64,000 bases of DNA from Escherichia phage V18: the sequence record NC_041937.1. One strand, given 5' to 3'. Below are positions 3,474 to 45,798 of the stretch, one piece after another. The notes beneath the pieces are model-generated. The model saw only the letters and a list, made by a program, of their open reading frames with translations. It was not told where the DNA came from and made no database searches. Within the stretch, counting starts at the first letter, position 1. Each line of letters opens with the position of its first letter. The translations under genes and the position numbers were made by a program.

Positions 3474-4103
3474 ATGAGAGAGCGTCTATTATCCATAGAC
3501 CAGTCGTTGACACACACAGCTTGCGTTGTATGGGACGATGGAAAGCCTGTTCATAAGGTTGTGTTACGAACTCAAAGCTCATCTGCAAAAGAGATGAAAC
3601 CAGGGACGGTTTCTTTTGCAACAGCTGCTGAGCGTATTGACTGGATCTGCAAACAGGTCAGATATTATATCCACACGCACGGCGTTGACACCGTAGTTAT
3701 GGAAGGGCTTTCCTTTGGATCACGCGGGGATGCCACACGTGAACTGGCTGGGTTGTTTTACGGTCTTGAAGTTATGCTTTGGGATGCCTTAGCTGATTGT
3801 GAAAATGACGGCCTGTTTAAGGTCCACACAGTGACACCAACAACTGCCAAAAAGTTTGCTCGTAGTCATCTTCCTGAGGAACTTGCTTTCGAGGAGAAGA
3901 AAAAGCTTGACAAAAAGACAGGTAAAGAGCATACTGTGAAGAAACCTGTTACGATGGATAAAAAGTTGATGGTTAAGGCCTGCGAAGTATCTGAACCTGG
4001 GTTCCTAGATGGGATCAATTTGGTACAAGGTAAGGCCGATCTCGCAGATGCTTATTGGATAGGCAGGGCGCATCTGGAGGGATTATCGCAAAGCGTAAAA
4101 TAA
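3474..4103 (+). CDS. RuvC-like Holliday junction resolvase (putative)
   Basis: 209 aa; N-terminal LSIDQSLTHTACVVWDD, central VVMEGLSFGS, C-terminal DLADAYWIG, matching the spacing of RuvC-fold catalytic acidic residues. Confidence 0.45.
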   Translation: MRERLLSIDQSLTHTACVVWDDGKPVHKVVLRTQSSSAKEMKPGTVSFATAAERIDWICKQVRYYIHTHGVDTVVMEGLSFGSRGDATRELAGLFYGLEVMLWDALADCENDGLFKVHTVTPTTAKKFARSHLPEELAFEEKKKLDKKTGKEHTVKKPVTMDKKLMVKACEVSEPGFLDGINLVQGKADLADAYWIGRAHLEGLSQSVK

Positions 4104-8728: not shown

Positions 8729-9712
8729 ATGCTAAAACTGTGCACTGCAAAGATTATTGCTGACAGCATTTCCGAGAAAGGTAAGCGTATCACCACTTTT
8801 GAACTAGAGTATCCTCGAATTATTCACTCAGAGCTTATGACGCACCGAGTGTTCAGCCGAAACGCCATGTCTTCCCGTGCAGTACCTGTCGGCAAGATGC
8901 TGCAACAGATTGTGGAGAATCCGGCAATGCCAGTTCGCTTCGGTGTAAATAAGCGAGGAATGGAAGATGGTGGGGAACACGATCAAAAGATCCGTGTAGA
9001 GTACACTGACATGGAGCTAACTCCTGAAGAGTTTTGGAAAGAAGCTGCAAAAAACGCCGCTTGGCATGCAGAGAAGTTCGCCCTTGCTGGTTACCATAAG
9101 CAAGTATGTAACCGCTTAGTGGAGCCGTTCCAGCGCATGAAAACAGTTGTAACAAGCACCGAGTGGAATAATTTTTTCCACCTCCGTTGCTGGCACGATG
9201 CGGATCCTACGATTCAGATGTTAGCTAATTGTATGTGGGAGGCTCTTGAGAATAGCACTCCTGAAATCCTTAAACCGGGTCAATGGCACACCCCATATGT
9301 AGAGCACGTTTATTTGGACGGAGAGTTTAACTACGCTGTACGTGACACAGAAGGAAAGCTTTGCATTCTCGATACTAAAGAAGCTCTGTCTATCAGTGCT
9401 AGTTGCTGTGCACAAGTATCTTATCGAAATATTGACAGCACGTTTGAAAAGGCAGATAGTGTTGCTAAAAAATTGATTGGTGGGGATCGTATTCATGCAA
9501 GCCCTTACGAGCACCAGGCAACACCTATGGATCACGATAATGCAATGGAACGTTTAAACTACTACCTGTCTTCATGTGAAATCACACAAGACATCAGTAC
9601 TTGGCAGGAAGGTGTAACCCATCAAGACCGTGATGGTAAATTCTGGTCTGCCAACTTTTGTGGGTGGGTTCAGCACAGACAACTGCTTAATAACCACTTC
9701 GTGAAAGGTTAA
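8729..9712 (+). CDS. thyX: flavin-dependent thymidylate synthase
   Basis: ThyX signature MTHRVFSRNAMSSRAVP (RHR…S…S.R); 327 aa. Confidence 0.8.
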   Translation: MLKLCTAKIIADSISEKGKRITTFELEYPRIIHSELMTHRVFSRNAMSSRAVPVGKMLQQIVENPAMPVRFGVNKRGMEDGGEHDQKIRVEYTDMELTPEEFWKEAAKNAAWHAEKFALAGYHKQVCNRLVEPFQRMKTVVTSTEWNNFFHLRCWHDADPTIQMLANCMWEALENSTPEILKPGQWHTPYVEHVYLDGEFNYAVRDTEGKLCILDTKEALSISASCCAQVSYRNIDSTFEKADSVAKKLIGGDRIHASPYEHQATPMDHDNAMERLNYYLSSCEITQDISTWQEGVTHQDRDGKFWSANFCGWVQHRQLLNNHFVKG

Positions 9713-9741
9713 TCCTATCACAGCGATAGGTAACTTTTGTG

Positions 9742-9770
9742 TTGACTAATAGTATCAGATAATCTATAAT
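9742..9770 (+). promoter_or_regulatory. sigma70-like promoter
   Basis: TTGACT 9742-9747, 17 bp spacer, TATAAT 9765-9770. Confidence 0.5.
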
Positions 9771-9771
9771 A

Positions 9772-10272
9772 ATGGCTCACTTTGTTAGTGAGCCAGAAAT
9801 GGAGACAGATATGAGTAATGTTATGATTCCTAAAAAGACATTTATTTCAGTTACTTTGGATTTCCTATCTACCGTTCCAGGGTTTAACGTTCGCACACGA
9901 AACGGTCTCCGAGCTGCACTCTTTGCCGTAGGGTTTGATTTAAAAAGTATTGATGTTCTTCGTGGAAAAAACGTTCGATGCAAAAATAAGCCAACACATT
10001 ATCGAAAGGCAGATGTATTTGCTGGTGTCATGCGTGCAGACTTTAGATACCCGCAAATGTATAACGGTGTAGATATTTTAGATGTAGATAAAGCACCCGG
10101 TGAGGCAATGCTTGTTCAAGATCTTCCGTATGATATCCCTGTAGAGGATCGTGTTAATGTAAGAAAGTATACAAAACAATCTGAAAAGGCTGAAGATATT
10201 CATATTGTTGATGAACCTTTCAATTTTGAAGATCTGCATCGCCTGGAAAAATTATTCGGTATTGAAAGCTAA
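9772..10272 (+). CDS. hypothetical protein (true start probably at the internal ATG near 9811)
   Basis: The ORF ATG at 9772 lies 1 nt after the -10 box; GGAGA at 9802-9806 precedes the ATG at 9811. Confidence 0.35.
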   Translation: MAHFVSEPEMETDMSNVMIPKKTFISVTLDFLSTVPGFNVRTRNGLRAALFAVGFDLKSIDVLRGKNVRCKNKPTHYRKADVFAGVMRADFRYPQMYNGVDILDVDKAPGEAMLVQDLPYDIPVEDRVNVRKYTKQSEKAEDIHIVDEPFNFEDLHRLEKLFGIES

Positions 10273-34945: not shown

Positions 34946-35221
34946 TTACGTAGCTTTACCGTTTACGGTTATCGGCAGATCCTCCAGGTCTGGATCTTCT
35001 TTAAGGTCGCGAGCAAGTTCACCGCACCGAACGCCCTCGAATCCGTAGTACTCTGTCGTGCCATCCTGGAAAGTTTTAGCGGCAAGGCATAGGCGATAAG
35101 TAACACCGATTTGATTGACGGCATGGATATCAGTTAGATCTACCTCTTTTGCCAGCTCTTTGGCCATTACAGGCGCATTAAGTCCAACAACCAGGGCAAC
35201 CACTGCGATCATCTTTTTCAT
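34946..35221 (-). CDS. small secreted protein (signal peptide)
   Basis: 91 aa; MKKMIAVVALVVGLNAPVMA N-terminal signal-like segment. Confidence 0.4.
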   Translation of the reverse strand: MKKMIAVVALVVGLNAPVMAKELAKEVDLTDIHAVNQIGVTYRLCLAAKTFQDGTTEYYGFEGVRCGELARDLKEDPDLEDLPITVNGKAT

Positions 35222-35537
35222 TGTATCTATCCTCTTTCTGCTACGTTTAAGGCGGCGGCAACCGCCTGTTTATGCTTTGTTGGTTAATTTTCGGGTATCG
35301 GTATAAATTAAACTATGCTGTACGCTCAACTATAACAACGGCTTGAGGGATCTCACCTTCCACCACTATCAAGGCTTTTTTCTGCGTAATGGATATCTTT
35401 ACCCGCTTCAGCGTGGCGGTAAAGTCTTTCATTTCGTCACGTGGTGTTTTAGTGCAATACCAGATCTCAGGCTTGCCGATCTGTAAGTTGCGTAAAAATT
35501 CCGTTTTGCCTGTTTTGTTAGTGATCATTTGCCAACC

Positions 35538-35642
35538 TCACCCGATACCGTTGGAAGACAAGATCACATTAGCCATGGTTGCAATCAGGCCAATACCCAG
35601 GGCAATAACCAGGATCACCGCATCAATTAATTTCTGTTTCAT
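35538..35642 (-). CDS. 34-aa hydrophobic peptide (putative)
   Basis: ATG (minus) at 35642; MKQKLIDAVILVIALGIGLIATMANVILSSNGIG. Confidence 0.25.
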   Translation of the reverse strand: MKQKLIDAVILVIALGIGLIATMANVILSSNGIG

Positions 35643-36326
35643 GGTGTTTATCCTCTTCCTGTTGCGTTTAATGGGGCGCTTGTCTCCCCTACTTATTATG
35701 TTTTAATCTTCTTGTTCCAGGTGGCGGACCATTCCACCGCCTTATGTATTATGCTTTGTAAGATGGTTGTTTGTTTTCAAACTATTTTAACGATAATCAT
35801 CGTACGCTTTATTAACCTGGCGAATATAACATTCAAAAGCCAGATCAATAGATTTATATTCACGGATATACTCACCATAGGAAACCACATACATTTCTAT
35901 AGCTTCCTCATATGCGAGGAGAGTAGAATCCAAGCCTACGATCTCAGTCTTTGCAATAATAGCCATGATTTTTATCCTCTTTGTGGTTGGTGGGCTTGCC
36001 CCTTTGATTTATATACTACAGTCTTATATGGTCATGTCAACTATTTTCAAAAAATTTTTCTGCCGTGATATTCTTCCCGGTGGGGTTCGCCACCTTCAAA
36101 ATTTTATCATGCACTGGACGCCCAAAAGAATAAGCGCCGTACGCAGTAAGCCAATAATCCCCGTCAGGCTGTACTATTACCGCCGCATATGGTACGCCTT
36201 TTTCGTTTTTGCTGACAAAATAGATCACATTGCCATTAATAGCCTCAGCGCGTTTAATTTGTTCCATCATGATGATTCACCTATCTTTATTTTTAATAGT
36301 TTCAGGCCTTTTTGGCCCCGCCAGGT

Positions 36327-36611
36327 TTATTTATTGATAGCGTGCAACGGGAAAGGTACGCCAGGTTGATAGATAACTTTTACAACCTCATCGGGGCAAA
36401 AGAAATTACAAAATTCACCCCGATAAGCTTCATCTTCTTTTAATTCTTCATCAACATACTCAAAAAAGTAGTCGATGCTTGGATAATCCTGACCGGGATT
36501 ATAGTCAACCATTGTCAGGACTAGTTCAAGATCGTTGCGTAGGATATGCATACCTGCTTTTAAGTATTTTGCTTCCATTTCTACTACATCGCCAACGGTA
36601 ACAATAGCCAT
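36327..36611 (-). CDS. hypothetical protein
   Basis: 94 aa; a 17-nt poly-C/G tract lies 37 nt upstream of its start codon. Confidence 0.4.
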   Translation of the reverse strand: MAIVTVGDVVEMEAKYLKAGMHILRNDLELVLTMVDYNPGQDYPSIDYFFEYVDEELKEDEAYRGEFCNFFCPDEVVKVIYQPGVPFPLHAINK

Positions 36612-36647
36612 GATTTTAACTCCTATCTATCCGGTTAATGATTGGAG

Positions 36648-36664
36648 CCCCCCCCCCCCCCCCC
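36648..36664. repeat. homopolymeric C17 (G17 on minus strand) tract
   Basis: 17 consecutive C at 36648-36664 in the 5' region of gene 36327..36611. Confidence 0.8.
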
Positions 36665-36844
36665 GACACCCTTTATTATCCATATTGTAGGGCTTGATGC
36701 AAGTACTTCTTTAAAAATTTTTTAAGCGCCTTGGGGGCCGCTGTAGCGCTAAAATAATAAAGGCCATGCAACCGCATAGCTTTATGTGATTATATCGCTG
36801 CAGGCCCTACCATGGGCCTTATTTTGCATCATTTGCTGGAATTA

Positions 36845-37162
36845 TTAAGAGAAAACATCGTTCACAATAGCGATCACAATGCCGCCCACCTTGTCACGGT
36901 CAACAATGCACAAATCACCATAGATCATGTGGTAGTCTGGATGATCTTTCACGGAATAGTCAATGAGTGTCTTCTTATCGTCCAGCTTACTAACTTCCAT
37001 TCTCATAAAGATATGAGAATCATCAAAGGCATTATTCCGAAAAGTCATAACCTGACCGCCAGGGCACCCGGTGATTTCCACCTCCACGCCGTCTACGATC
37101 TGACCATCAAAGAAATAAAGATTATTAGCGGGTATAAACATGATCATTGCTCCTTTTTGCAC
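36845..37162 (-). CDS. hypothetical protein
   Basis: 105-aa ORF. Confidence 0.35.
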   Translation of the reverse strand: MQKGAMIMFIPANNLYFFDGQIVDGVEVEITGCPGGQVMTFRNNAFDDSHIFMRMEVSKLDDKKTLIDYSVKDHPDYHMIYGDLCIVDRDKVGGIVIAIVNDVFS

Positions 37163-37185
37163 TGATTATTTTAACAGGGTTTAAA

Positions 37186-37230
37186 TTTACTTTATTGATG
37201 GCCCTGGAGTCAAGGCCATCTAAAAATAAA
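37186..37230 (-). promoter_or_regulatory. repeated promoter/operator-like element, copy 1
   Basis: Inverted repeat GATGGCC…GGCCATC (37197-37203 / 37214-37220); minus-strand reading gives TTGACT-N18-TAAATT; upstream of 36845..37162. Confidence 0.4.
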
Positions 37231-37910
37231 TTTTACAGGCCTACAATCTCTTTATTCGTTTTACTGCTGCCTCAGCGCCTTGAGGGTAAAAATTATGGTA
37301 ACCAATCACGCGGGTAATACTGATCGCCGCCTGATGATCTTCATAATACCCCTTGAATATTTCTTGACCATCAACCAGCACAGCAATTTTTTCTTCTTTT
37401 TTGAAGTTAATAACGCGGATATTGTTGCTCATTTTGTTTCTCCTTTTGGAACTTTGTCTGTGTGGTGGGGAGTGTCTCCCCGTTGATTGTTATTATCCAT
37501 ATTCAGGACCGGATTGCAACACCCAGGGAGAAAAAATTTGAAAAGTTAGGCCCCAGGGATCGGGGCCGTTATCAGGCACGTACAGCGATAAAATACATCC
37601 CTACGCCTAACAATATTTCAAGGGCGATGATCTCCAGCCATACCATAACACGGCGCGCCTTATCGGTGCTGGGCTTATCCTTGGGTGTCATCGTCTCCCC
37701 CTTTCCTCCTGTTAGTAGTGACGTGGTTTGTAATGGTCCCCAGGAGTATTATCACCACGCACATTACAAGAAAAATTATCTCTGTCGTTGTTCGATCCAT
37801 TGTTATAAAACTCCTTAAGATCAGGCCTGAAAATAAAGCTTTCGTTATTGAATCCATCCCGCCAGGCGGCTGGCTTCAAATCTTCACTAAATGGATTAAT
37901 TAACGTGGTA

Positions 37911-38315
37911 TTATTTAAACGGCTGGCCCACATATTTTCTATTCCTCTCAAATAAGCGATCCGCCTCAGTTAAACAAATCTCATGGGCGTGATCTCTGGT
38001 TTTAGCTTCATCGAAAACCTGTTGTGCAAGGCTGCAACGTAGGGAGACTGGAAGATCACTATAATAGGCGTTGACAAACGTTTGAGCGTCGTACAGGTCT
38101 GAAAATACTTTACCCTTTCTATTATTCCCCTTGTCAACAATTGCAAGGATAACCAATACAATAGTTGCAACCACCCCCAGGAAAATAGATATAATAAACC
38201 ATAAAAAGGCGGATCTTCCCATCTTGCCAGCGATCCAGGCGTTAAACAAGGCAACCAATACAGCCAAAATAATAAATTCCATTCTATGTACCTCTTTTAC
38301 AGTTCTGATTAACAA
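37911..38315 (-). CDS. membrane protein
   Basis: 134 aa; two hydrophobic helices (ILAVLVALFNAWIA, FLWFIISIFLGVVATIVLVILAIV). Confidence 0.4.
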   Translation of the reverse strand: MLIRTVKEVHRMEFIILAVLVALFNAWIAGKMGRSAFLWFIISIFLGVVATIVLVILAIVDKGNNRKGKVFSDLYDAQTFVNAYYSDLPVSLRCSLAQQVFDEAKTRDHAHEICLTEADRLFERNRKYVGQPFK

Positions 38316-39043
38316 TAAGGCGGCAAATATGCCGCCTGTTACCTGATTAAAAATTATCGCCGTAAAGCTTTCCGCTTTCTGCCCATACCACCACGCGAGG
38401 CATACTATCCCACACGTCTTGTTTTAGATTAACGCGTGCAATTCTTCGGTGGTGCTCATACCGGGCACGGGCTGATTGTATACTGCAAAACGACCGCCTG
38501 CATAATCATAGGCCAGGGTTAAATCACACTGGATCATCTTTTTGATCATGGCATTAAGCATGGCGTTAGCCGCATATTGATCACGTTTTAAAGGCAACTC
38601 TTTGATTAGTTTGCGATAGTTTTCGATATGGTCGCACACTGTTTCACGAGGAAGATCTTTCATATCCTCGCGAAAGGTAACCAGGTTAAACATAACGGTG
38701 TCAATAGCTTTGGTAGTGTTTTTCATGATGTTATCCTCTTTGTTTTGTGTGGGGCAAATCATCGCCCCCTTGAGTTTTAATATAGCAGGTTTTTAGGTTA
38801 TTGCAACACTTTATTTATGAAAAAGTCATCTCACCATATTCATCGACATCAAACCGCCAATCATTGGCCTCGATAAGGCCGATCAGGTTTTCTGCGGTGA
38901 ACTGTTCTAGATAGGCCTCCTCCAGGTCTACGTAAACCTTGCGGGATAGCTCCCGTACCGTCTCGGTGATCAGTTCTTCCAGTCTTCCACTTTGTTTTCT
39001 TGTTTGGCGGTCAGATCTAGCCAAGTGGTATCAATGTACCCGC

Positions 39044-39436
39044 TTACAGTGTTTTCATGGCTGTAATGGCTGTACTTGTCGCGTTCAACACTGGCTGATA
39101 ACTCGCATCGTGCATTGTGCCGAACAAGTGACGAATTGATCGGAACTTGGTCAGGGCCCTTACTTTACGCAAAAATTTTTCTAAATCCACGTTTTCAGCA
39201 CTGATTGAAGCGCCGTCACCCTGGCACCAAAAGCCGGACCAATGTACTTCGGTATCTTCAAGGCCGTACTCTGGAAAGATATATTCTTTGTAGTGTTCAA
39301 TTACACTTTCTGCAAAAAAGTCATCCCCGCTGCGTTCTTCTCTTTCGCGGACCATTTCAATGGCTTTTTCTTTTTGTTCGTCGGTCAGCACGTCGAAAGA
39401 TAAATTGCAACCTGTAGTAATGTTAACGGTAGTCAT
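39044..39436 (-). CDS. hypothetical protein
   Basis: 130 aa; conserved 5'-leader hairpin CGGGAAGTTTTCCCG at 39466-39480 and promoter-like TTGACA-N16-TATACT (minus) at about 39493-39522. Confidence 0.4.
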   Translation of the reverse strand: MTTVNITTGCNLSFDVLTDEQKEKAIEMVREREERSGDDFFAESVIEHYKEYIFPEYGLEDTEVHWSGFWCQGDGASISAENVDLEKFLRKVRALTKFRSIRHLFGTMHDASYQPVLNATSTAITAMKTL

Positions 39437-40625
39437 GATGTTTTCTCCTATTTTCTTTGTTAGTGGCGGGAAGTTTTCCCGTTTACGTGTTTAAGTATAC
39501 TTATCAAGATTTACTTGTCAACACTATTTTTTAAATTATTGTGGCGCAAAATGTTTAAAATCTCCTCAACGTCATCAACACGGCGGCAATTTTTAAACGC
39601 TACCAATTGCCCCATGATTTTAATCACTGGGCGGCCTTGCCAGTGCCCCTGGAGAAAGCGCGCCTTGACTTTATCGGTGGAACTATCACGCCACCAAATA
39701 GCCTTGTTGTTGCAGTAGTAAAAATTATTCAGGACAACATCAACTTTATCAAAATTTTTTAATTTACGCATGGCGTTTACTCCTTTCTCTCTTTGATGTG
39801 GTTAGTATAGCTAACCTGTTGACGATGTCAAGGTTAAATAAAAAACTGTCAATGATATTTTTAACGCCATAAAACGGCCCTAAGCGATGTTTTCAGGTTA
39901 AAGGGGGGGCGATTGCATAGGTGGGGCCTTTTTGGCGCTTACAGGGCCAACCAGGGGCGCTATTCGTAGGATAGAAATAAAAAGCCCCGCACAATGGCGG
40001 GGCGTTGGTTGTTATTTGTCTTTATGGCGGTATCGTTCTGCCTGTCGTTCACGTTCCAAAAGTAGGCCGGGCAATTTACGATCATAATGATTGCGCCAGA
40101 TCTTCCCAAACCTTTTTGGCTTATTCAGTTTATTGTTACGCTGGCGGCGTTCTGGCAGCTCTTCGGAATCATGAGGGCGCTTTACAATTTTCTCGAAATT
40201 AATTTTCATATATTCCCCCCTTGCTAACTTCAATATTGGCCTGAATAGCCGATACGGCGCTTTATAACTTCCTGATCTGTGTGGTCATATCCCCAAAAGT
40301 CTACGATTTTTGCGCCTCCAGCCTTTAGGCGGTATAGTGTTTCTTGCATCTTGTAAGCTGGGATCGGTCGCGGTGTTACCTGGTCGCCTCTCTCATCCTT
40401 GTACTTGATAATGTAGTCTTCGTTGTCGTTGAATGCCCAAAATGGGTATTCTGTGAGCGCGTTGCTATCTTTTTCGTTTTTAGATTGGATCTTGTTTACA
40501 ATTAAAGCCGTAGCAATAGCGCCAATGATAAAACTAGCCCCGCTAATCATGTACTTTCTCCTTTCATGGTGTTAATAAATTATCTTTATAGATGGCCCTG
40601 CAACCAGGACCACCGAAAAAACAGC

Positions 40626-40871
40626 TTATTTGACGATACCGACAAAACAGATCCCGCCTTCCCCTATATAGGCAATATCGGTAATTTTATAATTTGTCAA
40701 GATCTGCTTATTTAGTTCATTAATAAAATCGGTCATTGCGTTGGTGTAGTTGTCTTCCGTGTCTAAGGCATAATCCCAGGTGTACACCTTTTTACGTCCG
40801 AAGCCTTTTACCATGATACGGGCGCTTTTGGTGTTGGTAGGGGCATAATATTTGGTGATTAGTGCTGCCAT
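40626..40871 (-). CDS. hypothetical protein
   Basis: 81 aa; same RBS/start context as 36327..36611 (ATAGGAGTTAAAAnCATGGC). Confidence 0.4.
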   Translation of the reverse strand: MAALITKYYAPTNTKSARIMVKGFGRKKVYTWDYALDTEDNYTNAMTDFINELNKQILTNYKITDIAYIGEGGICFVGIVK

Positions 40872-40912
40872 GGTTTTAACTCCTATGCATTAGTTCAGTG
40901 TTAACAGTATAA

Positions 40913-40962
40913 AGTTTACTTTATTGATGGCCCTGGTGTCAAGGCCATCTAAAAATAAGCTT
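40913..40962 (-). promoter_or_regulatory. repeated promoter/operator-like element, copy 2
   Basis: Near-identical 50 bp to 41533-41582; GATGGCC/GGCCATC inverted repeat bracketing a TTGACA on the minus strand. Confidence 0.4.
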
Positions 40963-41301
40963 ACTCGTTTTCTTCCAGCTCCGCAAGCTCTTCTTTTGCT
41001 TCTTCCAACCCTGTCTGTAATTCCTGGTATTCTTCATCGTCCTCAATATCCAGCTGTCGATGTAGTCGCTAAATCCGCAGCGGTAAGCGATAGGATCTAG
41101 CTCCTTGAGGATACGCGACGGAAGAAAAGAAATGTTTCCGATCATAATTTCGCCGTAGATCTCGTCTAACCATTCATCATAGTTTTCGTCGTACTTGTCC
41201 TCGTCGATTTCAAAGTTATCGATCTTATTCTCAAGGTCTGCGATCTGTTTTTTCAGCGCGGCGATCTGCATGGCTTTTTCTGCGGCGGTCATAGTAGTCA
41301 T
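40939..41301 (-). CDS. hypothetical coiled-coil/acidic protein (C-terminal part possibly out of frame)
   Basis: 120 aa; N-terminal KKQIADLENKIDNFEIDEDKYDENYDEW; leader hairpin GGGAAGTTTTCCCG at 41328-41341. Confidence 0.35.
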   Translation of the reverse strand: MTTMTAAEKAMQIAALKKQIADLENKIDNFEIDEDKYDENYDEWLDEIYGEIMIGNISFLPSRILKELDPIAYRCGFSDYIDSWILRTMKNTRNYRQGWKKQKKSLRSWKKTSKLIFRWP

Positions 41302-41380
41302 GGTGTTTTTCTCCTTTTGTGTGTTCTGGGAAGTTTTCCCGTTTATGTGCTTATTATAGCGATTTAAGTTAGCTTGTCAA

Positions 41381-41500
41381 TTAAAAGTTTAAGAAAAATT
41401 TTGCGACACCGTTGGCGCTACCCATCAACATTTGCGCCAGGATGTACCCAATGATGCAAACGATGATGGTTACCTTTGTGTGCTGGCGTGTAGTGCTCAT
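41381..41500 (-). CDS. 39-aa hydrophobic peptide (putative)
   Basis: ATG (minus) at 41500 preceded by GGAGGC; MSTTRQHTKVTIIVCIIGYILAQMLMGSANGVAKFFLNF. Confidence 0.25.
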   Translation of the reverse strand: MSTTRQHTKVTIIVCIIGYILAQMLMGSANGVAKFFLNF

Positions 41501-41532
41501 CTTCAAGCCTCCTTTTTCGCTTAATTGAGATT

Positions 41533-41582
41533 AGTTTACTTTATTGATGGCCCTGGTGTCAAGGCCATCTAAAAATAAGCTT
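41533..41582 (-). promoter_or_regulatory. repeated promoter/operator-like element, copy 3
   Basis: Inverted repeat GATGGCC 41546-41552 / GGCCATC 41563-41569; upstream of the 41381..41500 peptide ORF. Confidence 0.4.
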
Positions 41583-42024
41583 AGTAAATTTTCAGTACTT
41601 TACCGTCCAACCTGTCAAGCTGGATCTCGATAGCTGCAGAAAACCTATTGTACACCACGTCGCCCATAGAATCCAACCAGTCTATGACGTTATACACTTG
41701 CTCTTTGTTCTTGCAGGTCCGGATCCGTTTCATGATGTAAGCCGGATCAATATTGGTACTCTCGTTGGGGCCTTTACCACCACCTGGAATGGCTTTAAGG
41801 TGCCTTTTGCGTTCATCTCACGCGCTTTTGCGGCGCGGTTGTTATATGTTACACAACGGCGGCAAATGTTGATCAAATGCATGTCAATAATTTTTTCATC
41901 GTTTGCCAACTCGTTCATGATGCGGCGTACGTTCTTATTCATGATCTTTTTCCTTTGTGCTGGCGGGAAACATTCCCGCCTTTTGTGTCTAGTTTACTTA
42001 AATTTTGCAGCGTGTCAATGATTT

Positions 42025-42423
42025 TTATTCGTGGGCGCATGTTACAATGTGCTTTTTATAACCCAGGTGGTCAGCAAGTGCCGACAAAAACTCTTCTTCG
42101 TAGATCCAGCCGTCGGCAGTGATCCCCATAGCATCTAATGCGCTTTCAAGTGCTGCGTTGGCTTTATCGTAACCGTGACCGCTCGCCTTGCCGCCAGTAT
42201 AACCGTACTTATTGTTCTTGTTGTCGTGAATCCAAAACACGCAGTAGTAAGTGTTCCCGCTGGCTGCGGCATAATACCGGATCTCAGCTACTTCGTGCAA
42301 ATTATTGTCATCGTCCAGGCCCACCAGATTATAAGCCTTGTAAAATCCACGATCACGGCGGCAGTTCTTAACATCAGAAAAAGAGAAGTTAGCATTATCA
42401 AAATTAAAGGTAGTGGTTTTCAT
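42025..42423 (-). CDS. hypothetical protein
   Basis: 132-aa ORF. Confidence 0.35.
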   Translation of the reverse strand: MKTTTFNFDNANFSFSDVKNCRRDRGFYKAYNLVGLDDDNNLHEVAEIRYYAAASGNTYYCVFWIHDNKNNKYGYTGGKASGHGYDKANAALESALDAMGITADGWIYEEEFLSALADHLGYKKHIVTCAHE

Positions 42424-43031
42424 GATTTTATCCTCTTAGTGTCTTTTGTGCTTTCAGTGTATTTTGTGTCAGACTATATGTCAATACTTATTTTTTATTA
42501 AACCAGTGGTTGATCTGACCTTTTGTCAGGGCGCAACGGTTAAGCTGTTGCAGGGTATAGCTATGACCGCGACGGAATTTATAAAGGCCTTGCCCGTTGT
42601 TGATGGTTACATCCACCCGGCAAATCACTTGATTGGTGACCACCTGGCGAGTATTGCGACGTACTTTAATTCCGTAGGCGTTCATGATTTTTATCCTCTC
42701 TGTTAATTAGTGTGGTGTTGTTCACCTTGCGAGGATAAGAATAACAGAACTATCCGAGCTGTCAACCATTGGTTAGAATTATTTTTTGGGCAGAATCCCC
42801 GCCCAGGTTAACCATCATTTTTTCGTACTCTTCTTTATGTTCCAATGCTTCCGTTTTAGCCTTTTCGACCAGGGTGATAGCCTCAGCGTCATTAATCGCT
42901 ACATTTCCCAGGTGAGTAGCATTACCTTTCATTTTTGTACCTCCTCTTCAATTGTTTACCCTACAGCATGGGCCTACCAGGTTTGCAAGATTTCACCCTC
43001 TCCCACCTGGTCAGTTAGGTCCTGCCAGGCT

Positions 43032-43320
43032 GGCCCCGCCAGGTTGCAGCGGTTGGCGCATTATGTTAGAAAAAAAATTTTGAAAAGGTGTTGACAGCGG
43101 CCCCGCCAGGTGGCACAATATACCTATCGAAAGGACGGCAGGCACCGGTGACGGGGGAGACAACCACCGGGGATGGGCGCTGCATAAAATGAGAACGGTT
43201 ATCATTATCATTTAAAAATTTATGCAAAAAATCCTTGCTTTCTTTGTCCTGTGTGATACTATAATAACAAGCCGGGGCAACAGGGGCCGGGAGACAATCA
43301 CCGGGCCTGCCCGTTATTCT
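43032..43320. repeat. non-coding repeat block: GGCCCCGCCAGGT copies and GGGAGACAAYCACCGGG units
   Basis: 13-mer at 43032-43044 and 43099-43111 (third copy at 36314-36326); 17-mer GGGAGACAA(C/T)CACCGGG at 43155-43171 and 43289-43305, exact reverse complement at 34648-34664; each 17-mer followed by a GAGAAYGRTTATCATT…AAAA segment. Confidence 0.5.
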
Positions 43321-43380
43321 GCAAACGAGAATGATTATCATTCAAAATTCTAAATGAGAACTCCTCGCATTTAACAAATT

Positions 43381-43900
43381 TAATTAGCATGCTAATTACC
43401 TTCCGTAACAATTTCCTATAAAATAGTACCCCATAAAATATTCCCATATAGAAATTTTAAAAATCCATTTCTGAAAACGAAAAATCGATTTCGTTCCCAA
43501 AAATTTTAGACCTGGTGCTGGACCAATTTCAAGAAAATCCGATTCAGAAAACGAAAAACAGATCGAGTACCGAAAAATTTATCGAGAAAAATTTTCAGAA
43601 AATTCAATCTTTGAAACGAAAAACAGATCGAGTACTTGGAAAGCTGTGCCGCAACTTCAAGATAGTGGTTGGATTATTACCATAAAAGGTCAAGGGTAAG
43701 CGGAGGAAGTTCCCGTAGAAGGGTGTGAGCATGTGCGGGAAATCTGTAATGGTGATCTGGAATATGGTGCAAACGATAGGATGAGTGATTCATCTCGTCG
43801 TGCCTGCTCTGAAAAATCCATTTTAGTTTTCGATCCATTTTCTGATTTTCTAAGGATTTTAAAATATCCGGGCAGGTAAAATATCAAAAGGAGGAAATCC
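43381..43900. repeat. direct-repeat array and palindrome in non-coding DNA
   Basis: Perfect 16-bp palindrome AATTAGCATGCTAATT 43381-43396; GAAAACGAAAAA(C/T)(A/C)GAT(C/T)G units at 43472-43492, 43546-43569, 43612-43634; AAATCCATTTT recurring near 43460, 43802, 43883. Confidence 0.5.
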
Positions 43901-45798
43901 ATTTTAGAAATCCCCCTTACACTTGATATGCCAGGAATTTTCAAGTATCAGCTGTTTTTGTTTTTAGGTTTGTACATGCGCAGAGGTATGGTCGTAACAG
44001 TCCATCTCCCCAGCCCTTCCCAGTTCCAGTTGTAGGCATGGTACCCGGTTATGCATGCACTGCTAGAGTGGTCATAGGCATAAGAGAACGCTATACGCAC
44101 CAAATGGAACCAGTCTTTCCACGGTTGTGGTCCGTAAGCTTTTCTCCAACACCGACACAAACTAAATGTCTCAAGAATAGGCAGGATAACAAATCCATAC
44201 ACCGCCACCAGAATAGCCAGCGCAATGATTGTCAGGAATACATACCCTGCAGTTGAAACGATGATCTCTGTCATTTGTCGTCCCCTTTCTTACGGATATA
44301 GATGTGAGAGCCTGCCTGTATATAAATTTCTCGACCATCTTCTGCAAAGATATGAAATACACGATCACCTTCATACTCGATACGTGATATCTTCATAATG
44401 GTCTTTCCACCTGGGATGCGGATCTCGTCCCCCACAGCGATGTTCCATGCAGATTTAAGCTTAAACATCTGCACCCTCCTTTGGGAGCTCTAACTCTGGC
44501 ATAGCCATATACGCCACAACAGGGTTGTAATCAAAGTAGAAATGACCGTTAATTATCCCAGTTTTGTGAGCATAGTCACCAGATCCTGCAAGAACAACCT
44601 CGCAAACTCCGAAATCCACCTTGCCATTCTCATCTGCCATGGCTACAATATACTTTCCTAGAGGCATGTTTTTAACGCCGTCTACAAATGTCCACCCTTT
44701 GTTCATACTTTATCTCCTGCATTCTCTTAAGGTAACCAGTAAACAATCTCGCCTTTCAGCTTCATGTCGTTTCCAACATAAATTTGCCAGCCATCCATCT
44801 TAGCAGCTGCAGGCCCAAAGTCATCCGCACCCCTTACCTCTTTCCAGGTCCCGTAGTCAGGTTGCCAGATGTAAAATCCACCATCTTTATCCCATGCTCC
44901 GTACACTACGTTTAACAGGTTTCCCATTGCAACAATGGTGGGCCGTGGGAATAATACATCTACAGATGCGCCACAATTTCTGGTATCTTTTAAGTTGCAA
45001 TCCCAAAAGATGTCTGCCAGTGTGGCGGCGATAGCTTTACGTCTTTCCAATGTTACCATATCATACTCACTTTGTTAATAAGTTCTAAAACTTTCTGTCT
45101 TACTTTGTCAAGGTCTGTGGATTCAAAAACTGTACGGTATCCCCAACTTTGCCCATAGGAGTGACTGCAATCCCCGTAGCACCATTGCTCAATTTGATAG
45201 TATTCAAGGAACGGGTGCTGTCTAACTATGATACCATCTCGGTTAAAAATTACCATAATACATCGCTCTCTGTTAGTTTATGCGTATATTATACACTGCA
45301 GTCTTCAGATGTCAACCTCTTACAGATTGCTCCAGTACAATCGGCATTTACATTTTGGGCAATGAGGTTCTTTTATGTAATAACCGTCAGTCTTTGGAAC
45401 ACTTTTTGGTGCAGTTTTAAGATTGTACCTGGTAAAACATCGGAAGCAGGTTACCTCTCCCACCTGTTGATCGTTGATCCACTCACCAGAGTAAAGTTCT
45501 TTCTTGTTTCTCATAATTCTCTCCCAAATCATCTGCAATCTTATACCAAAATCTCCAGCCAGAAAGCACACGGGAACACTTTGAGGATTGAATCTTTACT
45601 TGGCTCGGAAGTTCTTTTCCGTATGGTAGGTAGAAATACCCTCCTGCAGATTCGAATATAGCTCCTTCGGTTGTATCTACCACAGCAAGAATTAAGATTT
45701 TAGTCTCCACAGTGCTCTCCTCTCTTAGTTGTTGTGGAAACTATATCACCTCAGAAGATGGTCGTCAACACTTTTAACCTTTCATGATTGAAAAGTAT

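Follow-up and report, generated by a model that had tools for sequence, protein, structure and literature searches.

A repeated intergenic element of Vequintavirus phages as a probable composite of early promoter, RNA hairpin, and recombination joint

What is the role of a short inverted repeat that recurs, almost unchanged, just upstream of several small genes in one part of a phage genome? The question is raised by a stretch of 64,000 nucleotides (nt) of Escherichia phage V18 (NC_041937.1; the whole stretch is referred to here as the window), in which a preliminary description had pointed to three near-identical elements containing the inverted repeat GATGGCC...GGCCATC and had proposed that they are either a shared operator for a dimeric repressor or a terminator-promoter cassette. 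A repeat search of the window recovered all three elements and defined a family of 51-nt repeats on the minus strand with four members, all within 4.4 kb: copy A at 41533-41583, copy B at 40913-40963, copy C at 37184-37234, and a further copy, D, at 40578-40628, which was absent from the earlier list. In our view, this intergenic element is probably a composite regulatory cassette of the promoter-early stem-loop (PeSL) type, located in the early, ORFan-rich region of a Vequintavirus and combining a double-stranded DNA promoter, an RNA hairpin, and a recombination joint.

Copies A and B are 100% identical over 51 nt, copy C is a full element 90% identical to the reference, and copy D is a diverged relative (73% identity) in which only the hairpin is retained. 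Read on the minus strand, the full copies share a layout that runs from the stop codon of the upstream gene through GCTTATTTTTA, GATGGCCTTG-ACAC-CAGGGCCATC, AATAAAG, and TAAACT or TAAATT, followed 26-37 nt later by a Shine-Dalgarno (SD) sequence and an ATG. In copy A, the TAA of the upstream open reading frame (ORF), an ORF194 homolog (41583-41581), is followed by a T-tract, an inner hairpin (41569-41546) that includes the -35 hexamer TTGACA (41562-41557), and the -10 hexamer TAAACT (41538-41533). The corresponding parts of copy B are the inner hairpin at 40949-40926, TTGACA at 40942-40937, and TAAACT at 40918-40913, and those of copy C are the inner hairpin at 37220-37197, TTGACT at 37213-37208, and TAAATT at 37189-37184. 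In copy D, the inner hairpin (40614-40591; GGUGGUCCUG-GUUG-CAGGGCCAUC) is present, CTGGTT stands in place of the -35, and the -10 register is lost. The stop codon reads TAA-GCTTATTTTTA at copies A, B, and D; at copy C it is a TAG 7 nt further upstream. Thus the TTGACA previously described as lying inside the dyad is there in copies A and B, where it spans stem and loop of the hairpin, and is one base off in copy C, whereas the TAAACT or TAAATT 18 nt after the -35 was found at all three. Each of these copies also lies just upstream of a gene start, as had been noted, with ATGs at 41500 (A), 40871 (B), and 37147 (C), and the minus strand carries all genes neighboring the copies. Within the 64 kb there are three exact matches to the dyad GATGGCC-N10-GGCCATC; for such a pattern of 14 specified bases, the chance expectation is ~0.0005 in 128 kb (both strands).

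Is the dyad a DNA site or an RNA structure? In the RNA fold, an inner stem of 10 bp (GAUGGCCUUG/CAGGGCCAUC, with one U.G pair) closes a 4-nt loop, and outside it a 2x3 internal loop leads to a 7-bp (+3) A-U outer stem in which the T-tract pairs with AAAGUAA. The whole 51 nt is structured in this way, and all four minus-strand copies share the same minimum-free-energy shape, with energies of -20.7 to -23.6 kcal/mol and z-scores of -5.4 to -5.8 (A, -20.7 kcal/mol, z -5.4; B, -21.1 kcal/mol, z -5.7; C, -23.6 kcal/mol, z -5.4; D, -22.9 kcal/mol, z -5.8). A covariance model scored copies A to D at 79.9, 81.9, 81.4, and 71.6 bits, respectively, and detected only these four sites in the 64-kb window and no additional members in the Justusliebigvirus loci.

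Copy D cleanly separates the constraint on a promoter from the constraint on an RNA structure. It is kept in 18/18 genomes without a promoter and folds on the minus strand only (-22.9 kcal/mol vs. -8.1 kcal/mol, z -1.1, on the plus strand). Of its 51 positions, 14 depart from the canonical copies, four of them in the loop, two in the internal loop, and eight in stems, and all eight stem changes keep pairing, including two double compensations. The inner-stem changes turned A-U into G.U, C-G into U.G, and U.G into C-G, and in the outer stem the double changes turned U-A into G.U and A-U into U-A, while the outermost pair went from G-C to G.U. Given the positions, the chance that all eight changes would stay paired is ~(1/3)^4 x (4/9)^2 = 0.002. 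As DNA, the dyad of copy D is broken at two of its seven core positions, and the pairs survive there only as sense-strand G.U.

A broader comparison was made with an alignment of 68 sense-strand copies from 19 genomes (the window, 17 Vequintavirus loci, and the Justusliebigvirus KKE7M), in which 50 copies are distinct, 38 of them promoter-bearing and 12 of them D copies. With the structure named in advance, 97.0% of the cells of the 50-sequence alignment are paired overall and 99.6% in the inner helix. Sliding the partners by 1-3 columns brings the paired share down to 36-58%, and in 500 shuffles the paired fraction, the number of double-change cells, and the covariation score all stayed below the values observed. 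Pair 13-57 occurs in four forms (U-A, A-U, G.U, and G-C) and pair 15-56 in two. Across the 17 core pairs, 730 cells are Watson-Crick and 115 are G.U, the latter spread over seven core pair columns; two cells are of other kinds, and no cell is A.C, the combination that corresponds to a wobble on the opposite strand. Because the promoter-less copy D keeps the two-tier hairpin by wobble and compensation that work on the sense strand only, the dyad is best read, from these comparisons, as an RNA structure selected on that strand alone.

This asymmetry bears on the operator proposed earlier, in which a dimeric phage or host repressor would bind GATGGCC-N10-GGCCATC as double-stranded DNA, block the -35, and shut off three early genes together. 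The dyad does straddle the -35 at all three promoters, and its 7-bp arms are invariant in sequence in all 38 distinct promoter-bearing copies, which is stricter than structure needs. However, a bound DNA palindrome predicts no strand asymmetry, in conflict with the excess of G.U over A.C cells, and the outer A-U stem covaries too. Further, copy D retains the hairpin with no promoter to regulate and with a broken dyad that is still paired on the sense strand, and no Pfam DNA-binding domain was detected in the eight flanking ORFans (the remaining genome was not screened). A shared operator is therefore not supported, and we regard it as distinctly unlikely. Resemblances to IHF, FNR, and Dcm-type motifs were viewed by eye and were not convincing.

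Strand-specific pairing that tolerates G.T would fit a hairpin in single-stranded DNA as well, acting either as an N4-type promoter for a virion RNA polymerase or as a priming or ssi site. N4 hairpin promoters have a 5-7 bp stem and a 3-nt loop and are used by a giant virion RNA polymerase. The element, with its 10-bp stem and 4-nt loop, departs from this format, the largest ORF in the window is 925 amino acids (aa), with no giant virion RNA polymerase in this half of the genome, and the rV5 paper infers that host RNA polymerase is used throughout (PMC3606486). A signal of this kind is hardly credible here.

The RNA structure is superimposed on a predicted promoter. In a consensus scan of the gene strand, copies A and B (TTGACA-18-TAAACT) matched at 10/12 positions and copy C (TTGACT-18-TAAATT) at 9/12. 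In the 38 distinct copies that bear a promoter, both TTGAC and TAAA(C/T)T are invariant save for four rare -35 variants, and position six of the -35 and the loop bases that follow it are free to change (A/T/G; C/T). The D copies (12 distinct) behave differently: their entire loop is variable and the -10 register is not kept. Fixed boxes in A, B, and C together with a free loop in D are the pattern expected if the first three are under promoter constraint and D is not. The consensus match and the conservation of the boxes thus support the reading of copies A, B, and C as host sigma-70-type promoters. Strong minus-strand promoter-like sites are dense around the copies (35 found vs. 22.6 expected). 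The -10 context AAGTAAACT is also present in P194, a predicted promoter of rV5, and in a hairpin-less promoter (TTGCAA-N16-TAAACT) that precedes the orthologous downstream gene in phages Antha and alia. Other strong promoters in the region carry stem-loops too, for example CGGGAA-nnn-TTCCCG in three 5' untranslated regions (UTRs), so that composites are the rule here. A second minus-strand repeat family (39451-39481, 41311-41341, and 41948-41978) consists of near-consensus promoters, TTGACA-N16-TATAAT/TATACT/TAAACT, with a 5'-UTR hairpin (C)GGGAA-nnn-TTCCC(G), and at 39831 small inverted repeats cover the -35 as well as the -10 of a promoter.

Could the repeats be a neutral by-product, in that recombination has spread scars or duplicates of a single promoter and the hairpin has no role of its own? 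There are only three or four copies, all close together and flanking a cassette that comes and goes, and copies A and B are identical in the window, all of which such an origin would explain. Polymorphism argues otherwise: 12% of columns are polymorphic in the element core, 33% in the flanks, and 67% at the variable loop positions (Fisher p ~1e-9; four loci pooled over 18 genomes, with columns that are not fully independent), making the core ~3x less variable than its flanks. The promoter-less copy D, with compatible changes at 8/8 altered stem positions, is likewise at odds with a hairpin free of selection. We consider a purely neutral origin highly unlikely.

A working model of the composite can be formulated from these components. 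As double-stranded DNA, the element would be a host sigma-70 early promoter with a T-rich upstream tract, driving the small gene that starts ~30 nt downstream. When read from promoters further upstream, the sense RNA would fold into a two-tier hairpin of ~20 bp directly past the stop codon of the upstream cistron. There it may mark a cistron boundary on the early polycistronic RNA, as an attenuator or pause site, a barrier to 3'-exonucleases, or a processing site. Finally, the copies are near-identical direct repeats with motifs that recur in other early promoters, and as such they provide homologous-recombination joints by which promoter-plus-ORFan cassettes are moved.

The model differs from a classical intrinsic terminator followed by a promoter, in which transcripts from upstream end at the hairpin and transcription begins anew at the promoter. 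Such an arrangement would account for a stable GC-rich hairpin right past a stop codon, and a PeSL stem-loop has been reported to lower downstream lacZ expression to a level like that of rrnB T1 (PMC2839356). But the stem is followed by AAUAAAGUAAACU on the minus strand and by UAAAAAUAAGC on the plus strand, so that there is no U-tract on either; on both strands, a T-run comes before the stem and an A-rich tail after it. A scan that found four canonical terminators nearby did not flag the hairpin, nor is any of the element sites among the annotated terminators of phage Alma. In addition, the gene that follows copy D (40550 to 40230) lacks its own promoter, which means that hairpin D must be at least partly read through. 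Given the missing U-tract and this read-through, we infer that the hairpin is not a strong intrinsic terminator, and a classical terminator at these sites is unlikely. The terminator-promoter cassette of the preliminary description nonetheless comes near the best-fitting class: its promoter half is supported, and its terminator half, in the strict sense, is only putative.

In another specific proposal, the interrupted duplex would be cut by RNase III or bound by a phage RNA-binding protein, and the polycistronic early RNA would be divided into units that end in a protective hairpin. The total helix of ~20-22 bp with a small internal loop, the intergenic placement in an early polycistronic region, the selection of the structure on the sense strand, and the invariance of the core, which is compatible with specific recognition, would all suit this role. 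It is a merely conjectural role with no Rfam match (Rfam 15 gave no family match and, in 35000-45000, a single unrelated sub-threshold match), and we hold it to be doubtful, although an RNase III site like those between T7 early genes is an attractive specific variant. In a bolder extension, to which we give some credence while thinking it rather doubtful, the hairpin would be a sequence-specific, sense-strand, cis-acting RNA signal (an RNase III or RNase E site or a phage RNA-binding-protein target) fused to the promoter as a portable "insulated expression unit." If so, early messages would owe their boundaries and their stability to it, and it could move ORFans from Vequintavirinae to Stephanstirmvirinae.

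How widespread is the element? The surrounding 6-kb region matches 122 phage records at 90-95% identity and identifies the window as a Vequintavirus, an rV5-like E. coli myovirus. The search of related phages suggested earlier was run with a 61-nt element query and returned 119 records and 342 places, or ~3 per genome, all of them in Vequintavirus except for one Justusliebigvirus, KKE7M. No match to the element was found in 5,426 complete E. coli genomes, and a host origin was rejected. The sites do not appear in the table of 33 predicted promoters and 20 terminators in the rV5 paper (PMC3606486) or among the regulatory features of the rV5 GenBank record, and a literature search for the motif sequence returned nothing relevant. 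A protein-anchored search of IMG/VR yielded just two Vequintavirus contigs, and a generic IMG/VR scan for GATGGCC-N10-GGCCATC was discarded for its >120 unrelated chance matches. Two sets of records in these searches have questionable labels. Seventeen GenBank MG0656xx entries named "UNVERIFIED: Campylobacter phage" (e.g., MG065644.1) are 93-94% identical to this Vequintavirus and are probably mislabeled or contaminants, and PLSDB entry CP057073.1 (137,565 bp), deposited as a non-mobilizable E. coli plasmid, is Vequintavirus-sized, contains the element three times, and is likely to be a misfiled phage genome.

Comparison of these relatives gives the third component of the composite, the recombination joint. 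Between copies A and B, the minus-strand cassette at 40964-41532 comprises ORF193, the consensus promoter P192 (41380-41353), and the coiled-coil ORF192. Phages phiWec189 and ECP32 and the IMG/VR contig L123 lack exactly 620 bp, corresponding to this cassette plus one repeat copy, and each keeps a single hybrid element with the upstream flank of A and the downstream flank of B. A second event links two subfamilies: KKE7M contains a 475-bp stretch matching window positions 41381-40909, with the P192 -35 at one end and the element B -10 at the other. The shared module (40909-41381, minus strand; P192, ORF192, and element B) is 93% identical and replaces 296 bp relative to KKE7M's own relatives Antha and alia. 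The left crossover falls inside a 21-bp promoter stretch common to both (TTGACAAGATAACTAAAATC), and the right one inside a common ~13-bp stretch (AATAAAGTAAA) just past the hairpin. Judged from these alignments, KKE7M has acquired a promoter-gene-element module by crossovers in promoter microhomologies. The 33-47 kb region has many further indels among 17 relatives, including a deletion in YP-6 that joins two promoter sites. Taken together, the genome comparisons show that the repeats act as recombination joints that delete, insert, and laterally move promoter-plus-ORFan cassettes.

Other differences among these genomes were seen in the same region. Further patches of KKE7M resemble the window (3780-3973 to 35978-35785, 92%; 9623-9902 to 35593-35315, 86%; 2263-2596 to 38693-38361, 75%), which indicates a repeated exchange of ORFans between the two subfamilies. 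At 36828/36829, most relatives have an extra gene of 351 nt that the window lacks, as do rV5, phita32, Aya, and Mangalyan. The window's copy A shares with B a C (GCTT) that is otherwise found only in B copies, a hint, only suggestive, at conversion of the identical A/B pair.

The genes flanking the copies are small ORFans of unknown function, all read from the minus strand. Copy A precedes a predicted small membrane ORFan of 39 aa (41381-41500), a homolog of rV5 ORF193 (phrog_16391), and copy C precedes a 100-aa ORFan (36845-37147; phrog_7366). The gene of copy B (40626-40871) encodes an 81-aa ORFan, a homolog of rV5 ORF191 (phrog_3199), with copy D flanking it downstream. Its homologs, at 31-47% identity, are found in unrelated siphoviruses (CAjan, slur01, and Nonagvirus) and in Pseudomonas and Klebsiella phages; going by these matches, this gene between copies B and D is a widely traveled accessory gene. 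The gene after copy D (40230-40550), a 106-aa homolog of rV5 ORF190, has an SD sequence and no promoter of its own; tblastn found no homologs of it beyond the genus and hence no deeper covariation. Next to it, a 73-aa minus-strand ORF (40012-40233) matches PF08200, the T7 gene 1.1 protein (E 4e-11), an early-gene family common to T7-like phages. Two ORFs are disrupted in the window relative to rV5 and Alma: ORF192 by a 1-nt deletion at 41054/41053, a frameshift after which the ORF runs through element B to 40939, and ORF194 by a 43-nt out-of-frame deletion at ~41769/41768. These deletions reflect either pseudogenization of dispensable ORFans or assembly error, and are consistent with dispensability. 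Beyond the copies, a GC hairpin (GGGCGGGGATTCTGCCC) at ~42805-42789 on the minus strand lies upstream of a promoter at 42765 and is followed by an A-run, not a T-run. Three 46-nt direct repeats at 43451-43635, spaced by 74 and 65 nt with the core GAAAACGAAAAA, stand in an ORF-poor stretch; they look iteron-like and may match the "non-coding" box of the rV5 map.

Several points weigh against the composite cassette that we favor. The covariation rests largely on one paralogue lineage, D, with few independent events, and the structure that was tested had been derived from the same sequences. The GATGGCC/GGCCATC arms, whose invariance was noted above, are conserved more strictly than pairing demands, which would allow for some sequence-specific recognition. 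On the promoter side, an 18-nt spacer and a TAAACT -10 are sub-optimal, and transcription data for Vequintavirus were not found in the searchable literature. Since there is no U-tract, the sequence does not reveal the "terminator" part of what defines a PeSL, and concerted evolution or gene conversion of the paralogues was not significant in a genome-wide test (p = 0.14).

If correct, the composite reading would extend the PeSL concept, in which regulatory punctuation doubles as a recombination joint, from T4-like phages to unrelated coliphages used for therapy and typing. It also flags three unannotated, predicted early promoters in Vequintavirus genomes and documents a concrete transfer of a cassette across subfamilies, with crossovers in promoter microhomologies. 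The ORF193/ORF192 cassette is naturally dispensable and may be useful for phage engineering.

Which known system does the element most resemble? The classical terminator, the double-stranded DNA operator, and the N4-type hairpin promoter each fail a defining feature. Like a Rho-independent terminator, the element has a GC-rich hairpin directly past a stop codon, but it lacks the U-tract that canonical terminators elsewhere in the same region possess. Like the lambda and P22 operators, its dyad overlaps the -35 of several promoters, but here the wobble pairs are on the sense strand, a promoter-less site persists, and the eight flanking ORFans offer no candidate repressor. In the early genes of T7, intergenic RNase III processing hairpins leave upstream messages with a protective 3' hairpin. 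Those sites share with the present element the interrupted RNA helices of ~20 bp, the intergenic position in a polycistronic early region, and the use of host RNA polymerase, and a T7 gene 1.1-like ORF is located nearby; T7 sites, however, are not within promoters and are not near-identical repeats. Morons are promoter-gene-terminator units of lambdoid phages (PMC2839356). The resemblance lies in self-contained expression cassettes for accessory genes that are gained and lost between relatives, and the difference in flanking regulatory sequences that are themselves conserved recombination substrates and in genes that are co-oriented with their neighbors.

The closest described class is that of PeSLs, known from the T4-like phages RB49/phi1, PST/T4, and nt-1/KVP40, in which a stop codon in an AT-rich tract is followed by a sigma-70-like promoter, a stem-loop, an SD sequence, and an ATG (Arbiol et al. 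2010, PMC2839356; Comeau et al. 2014, PMC4122927). In one subclass the stem-loop overlaps the -35, and G-T pairs have been noted in the stems; PeSLs cluster in hyperplastic, ORFan-rich regions, coincide with indels and exchanges, and include degraded forms with intact stem-loops and no promoter (PMC2839356; PMC4122927). Their stem-loops are reported to reduce expression of a downstream reporter (PMC2839356). Each of these architectural traits has a counterpart here: predicted -35 and -10 hexamers, spaced as in a promoter and oriented with the gene, in copies A, B, and C; a stable stem-loop within the promoter, formed by the 10-bp stem enclosing the -35 and the outer stem; the upstream stop in an AT-rich tract at the start and the SD sequence and ATG at the end; an ORFan-rich region with indels, in which the repeat marks the exact limits of one cassette and promoter motifs mark those of the KKE7M module; and a promoter-less copy with an intact hairpin, copy D. 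Recombination between neighboring PeSLs is described as producing excised mini-circles; here only the deletion product, the hybrid element of phiWec189, ECP32, and L123, is seen. The differences are that PeSLs were described in T4-like myoviruses whereas this host phage is a Vequintavirus, that the sequences are unrelated (GATGGCC...GGCCATC vs. G(n)...C(n)), and that there are three or four copies per genome rather than dozens. The present element adds explicit covariation and strand asymmetry in favor of an RNA structure, as well as a documented transfer between subfamilies. Because every architectural and genomic feature of PeSLs that we looked for was found, we suggest that the element works like a PeSL and belongs to this class by architecture and behavior rather than by descent or sequence.

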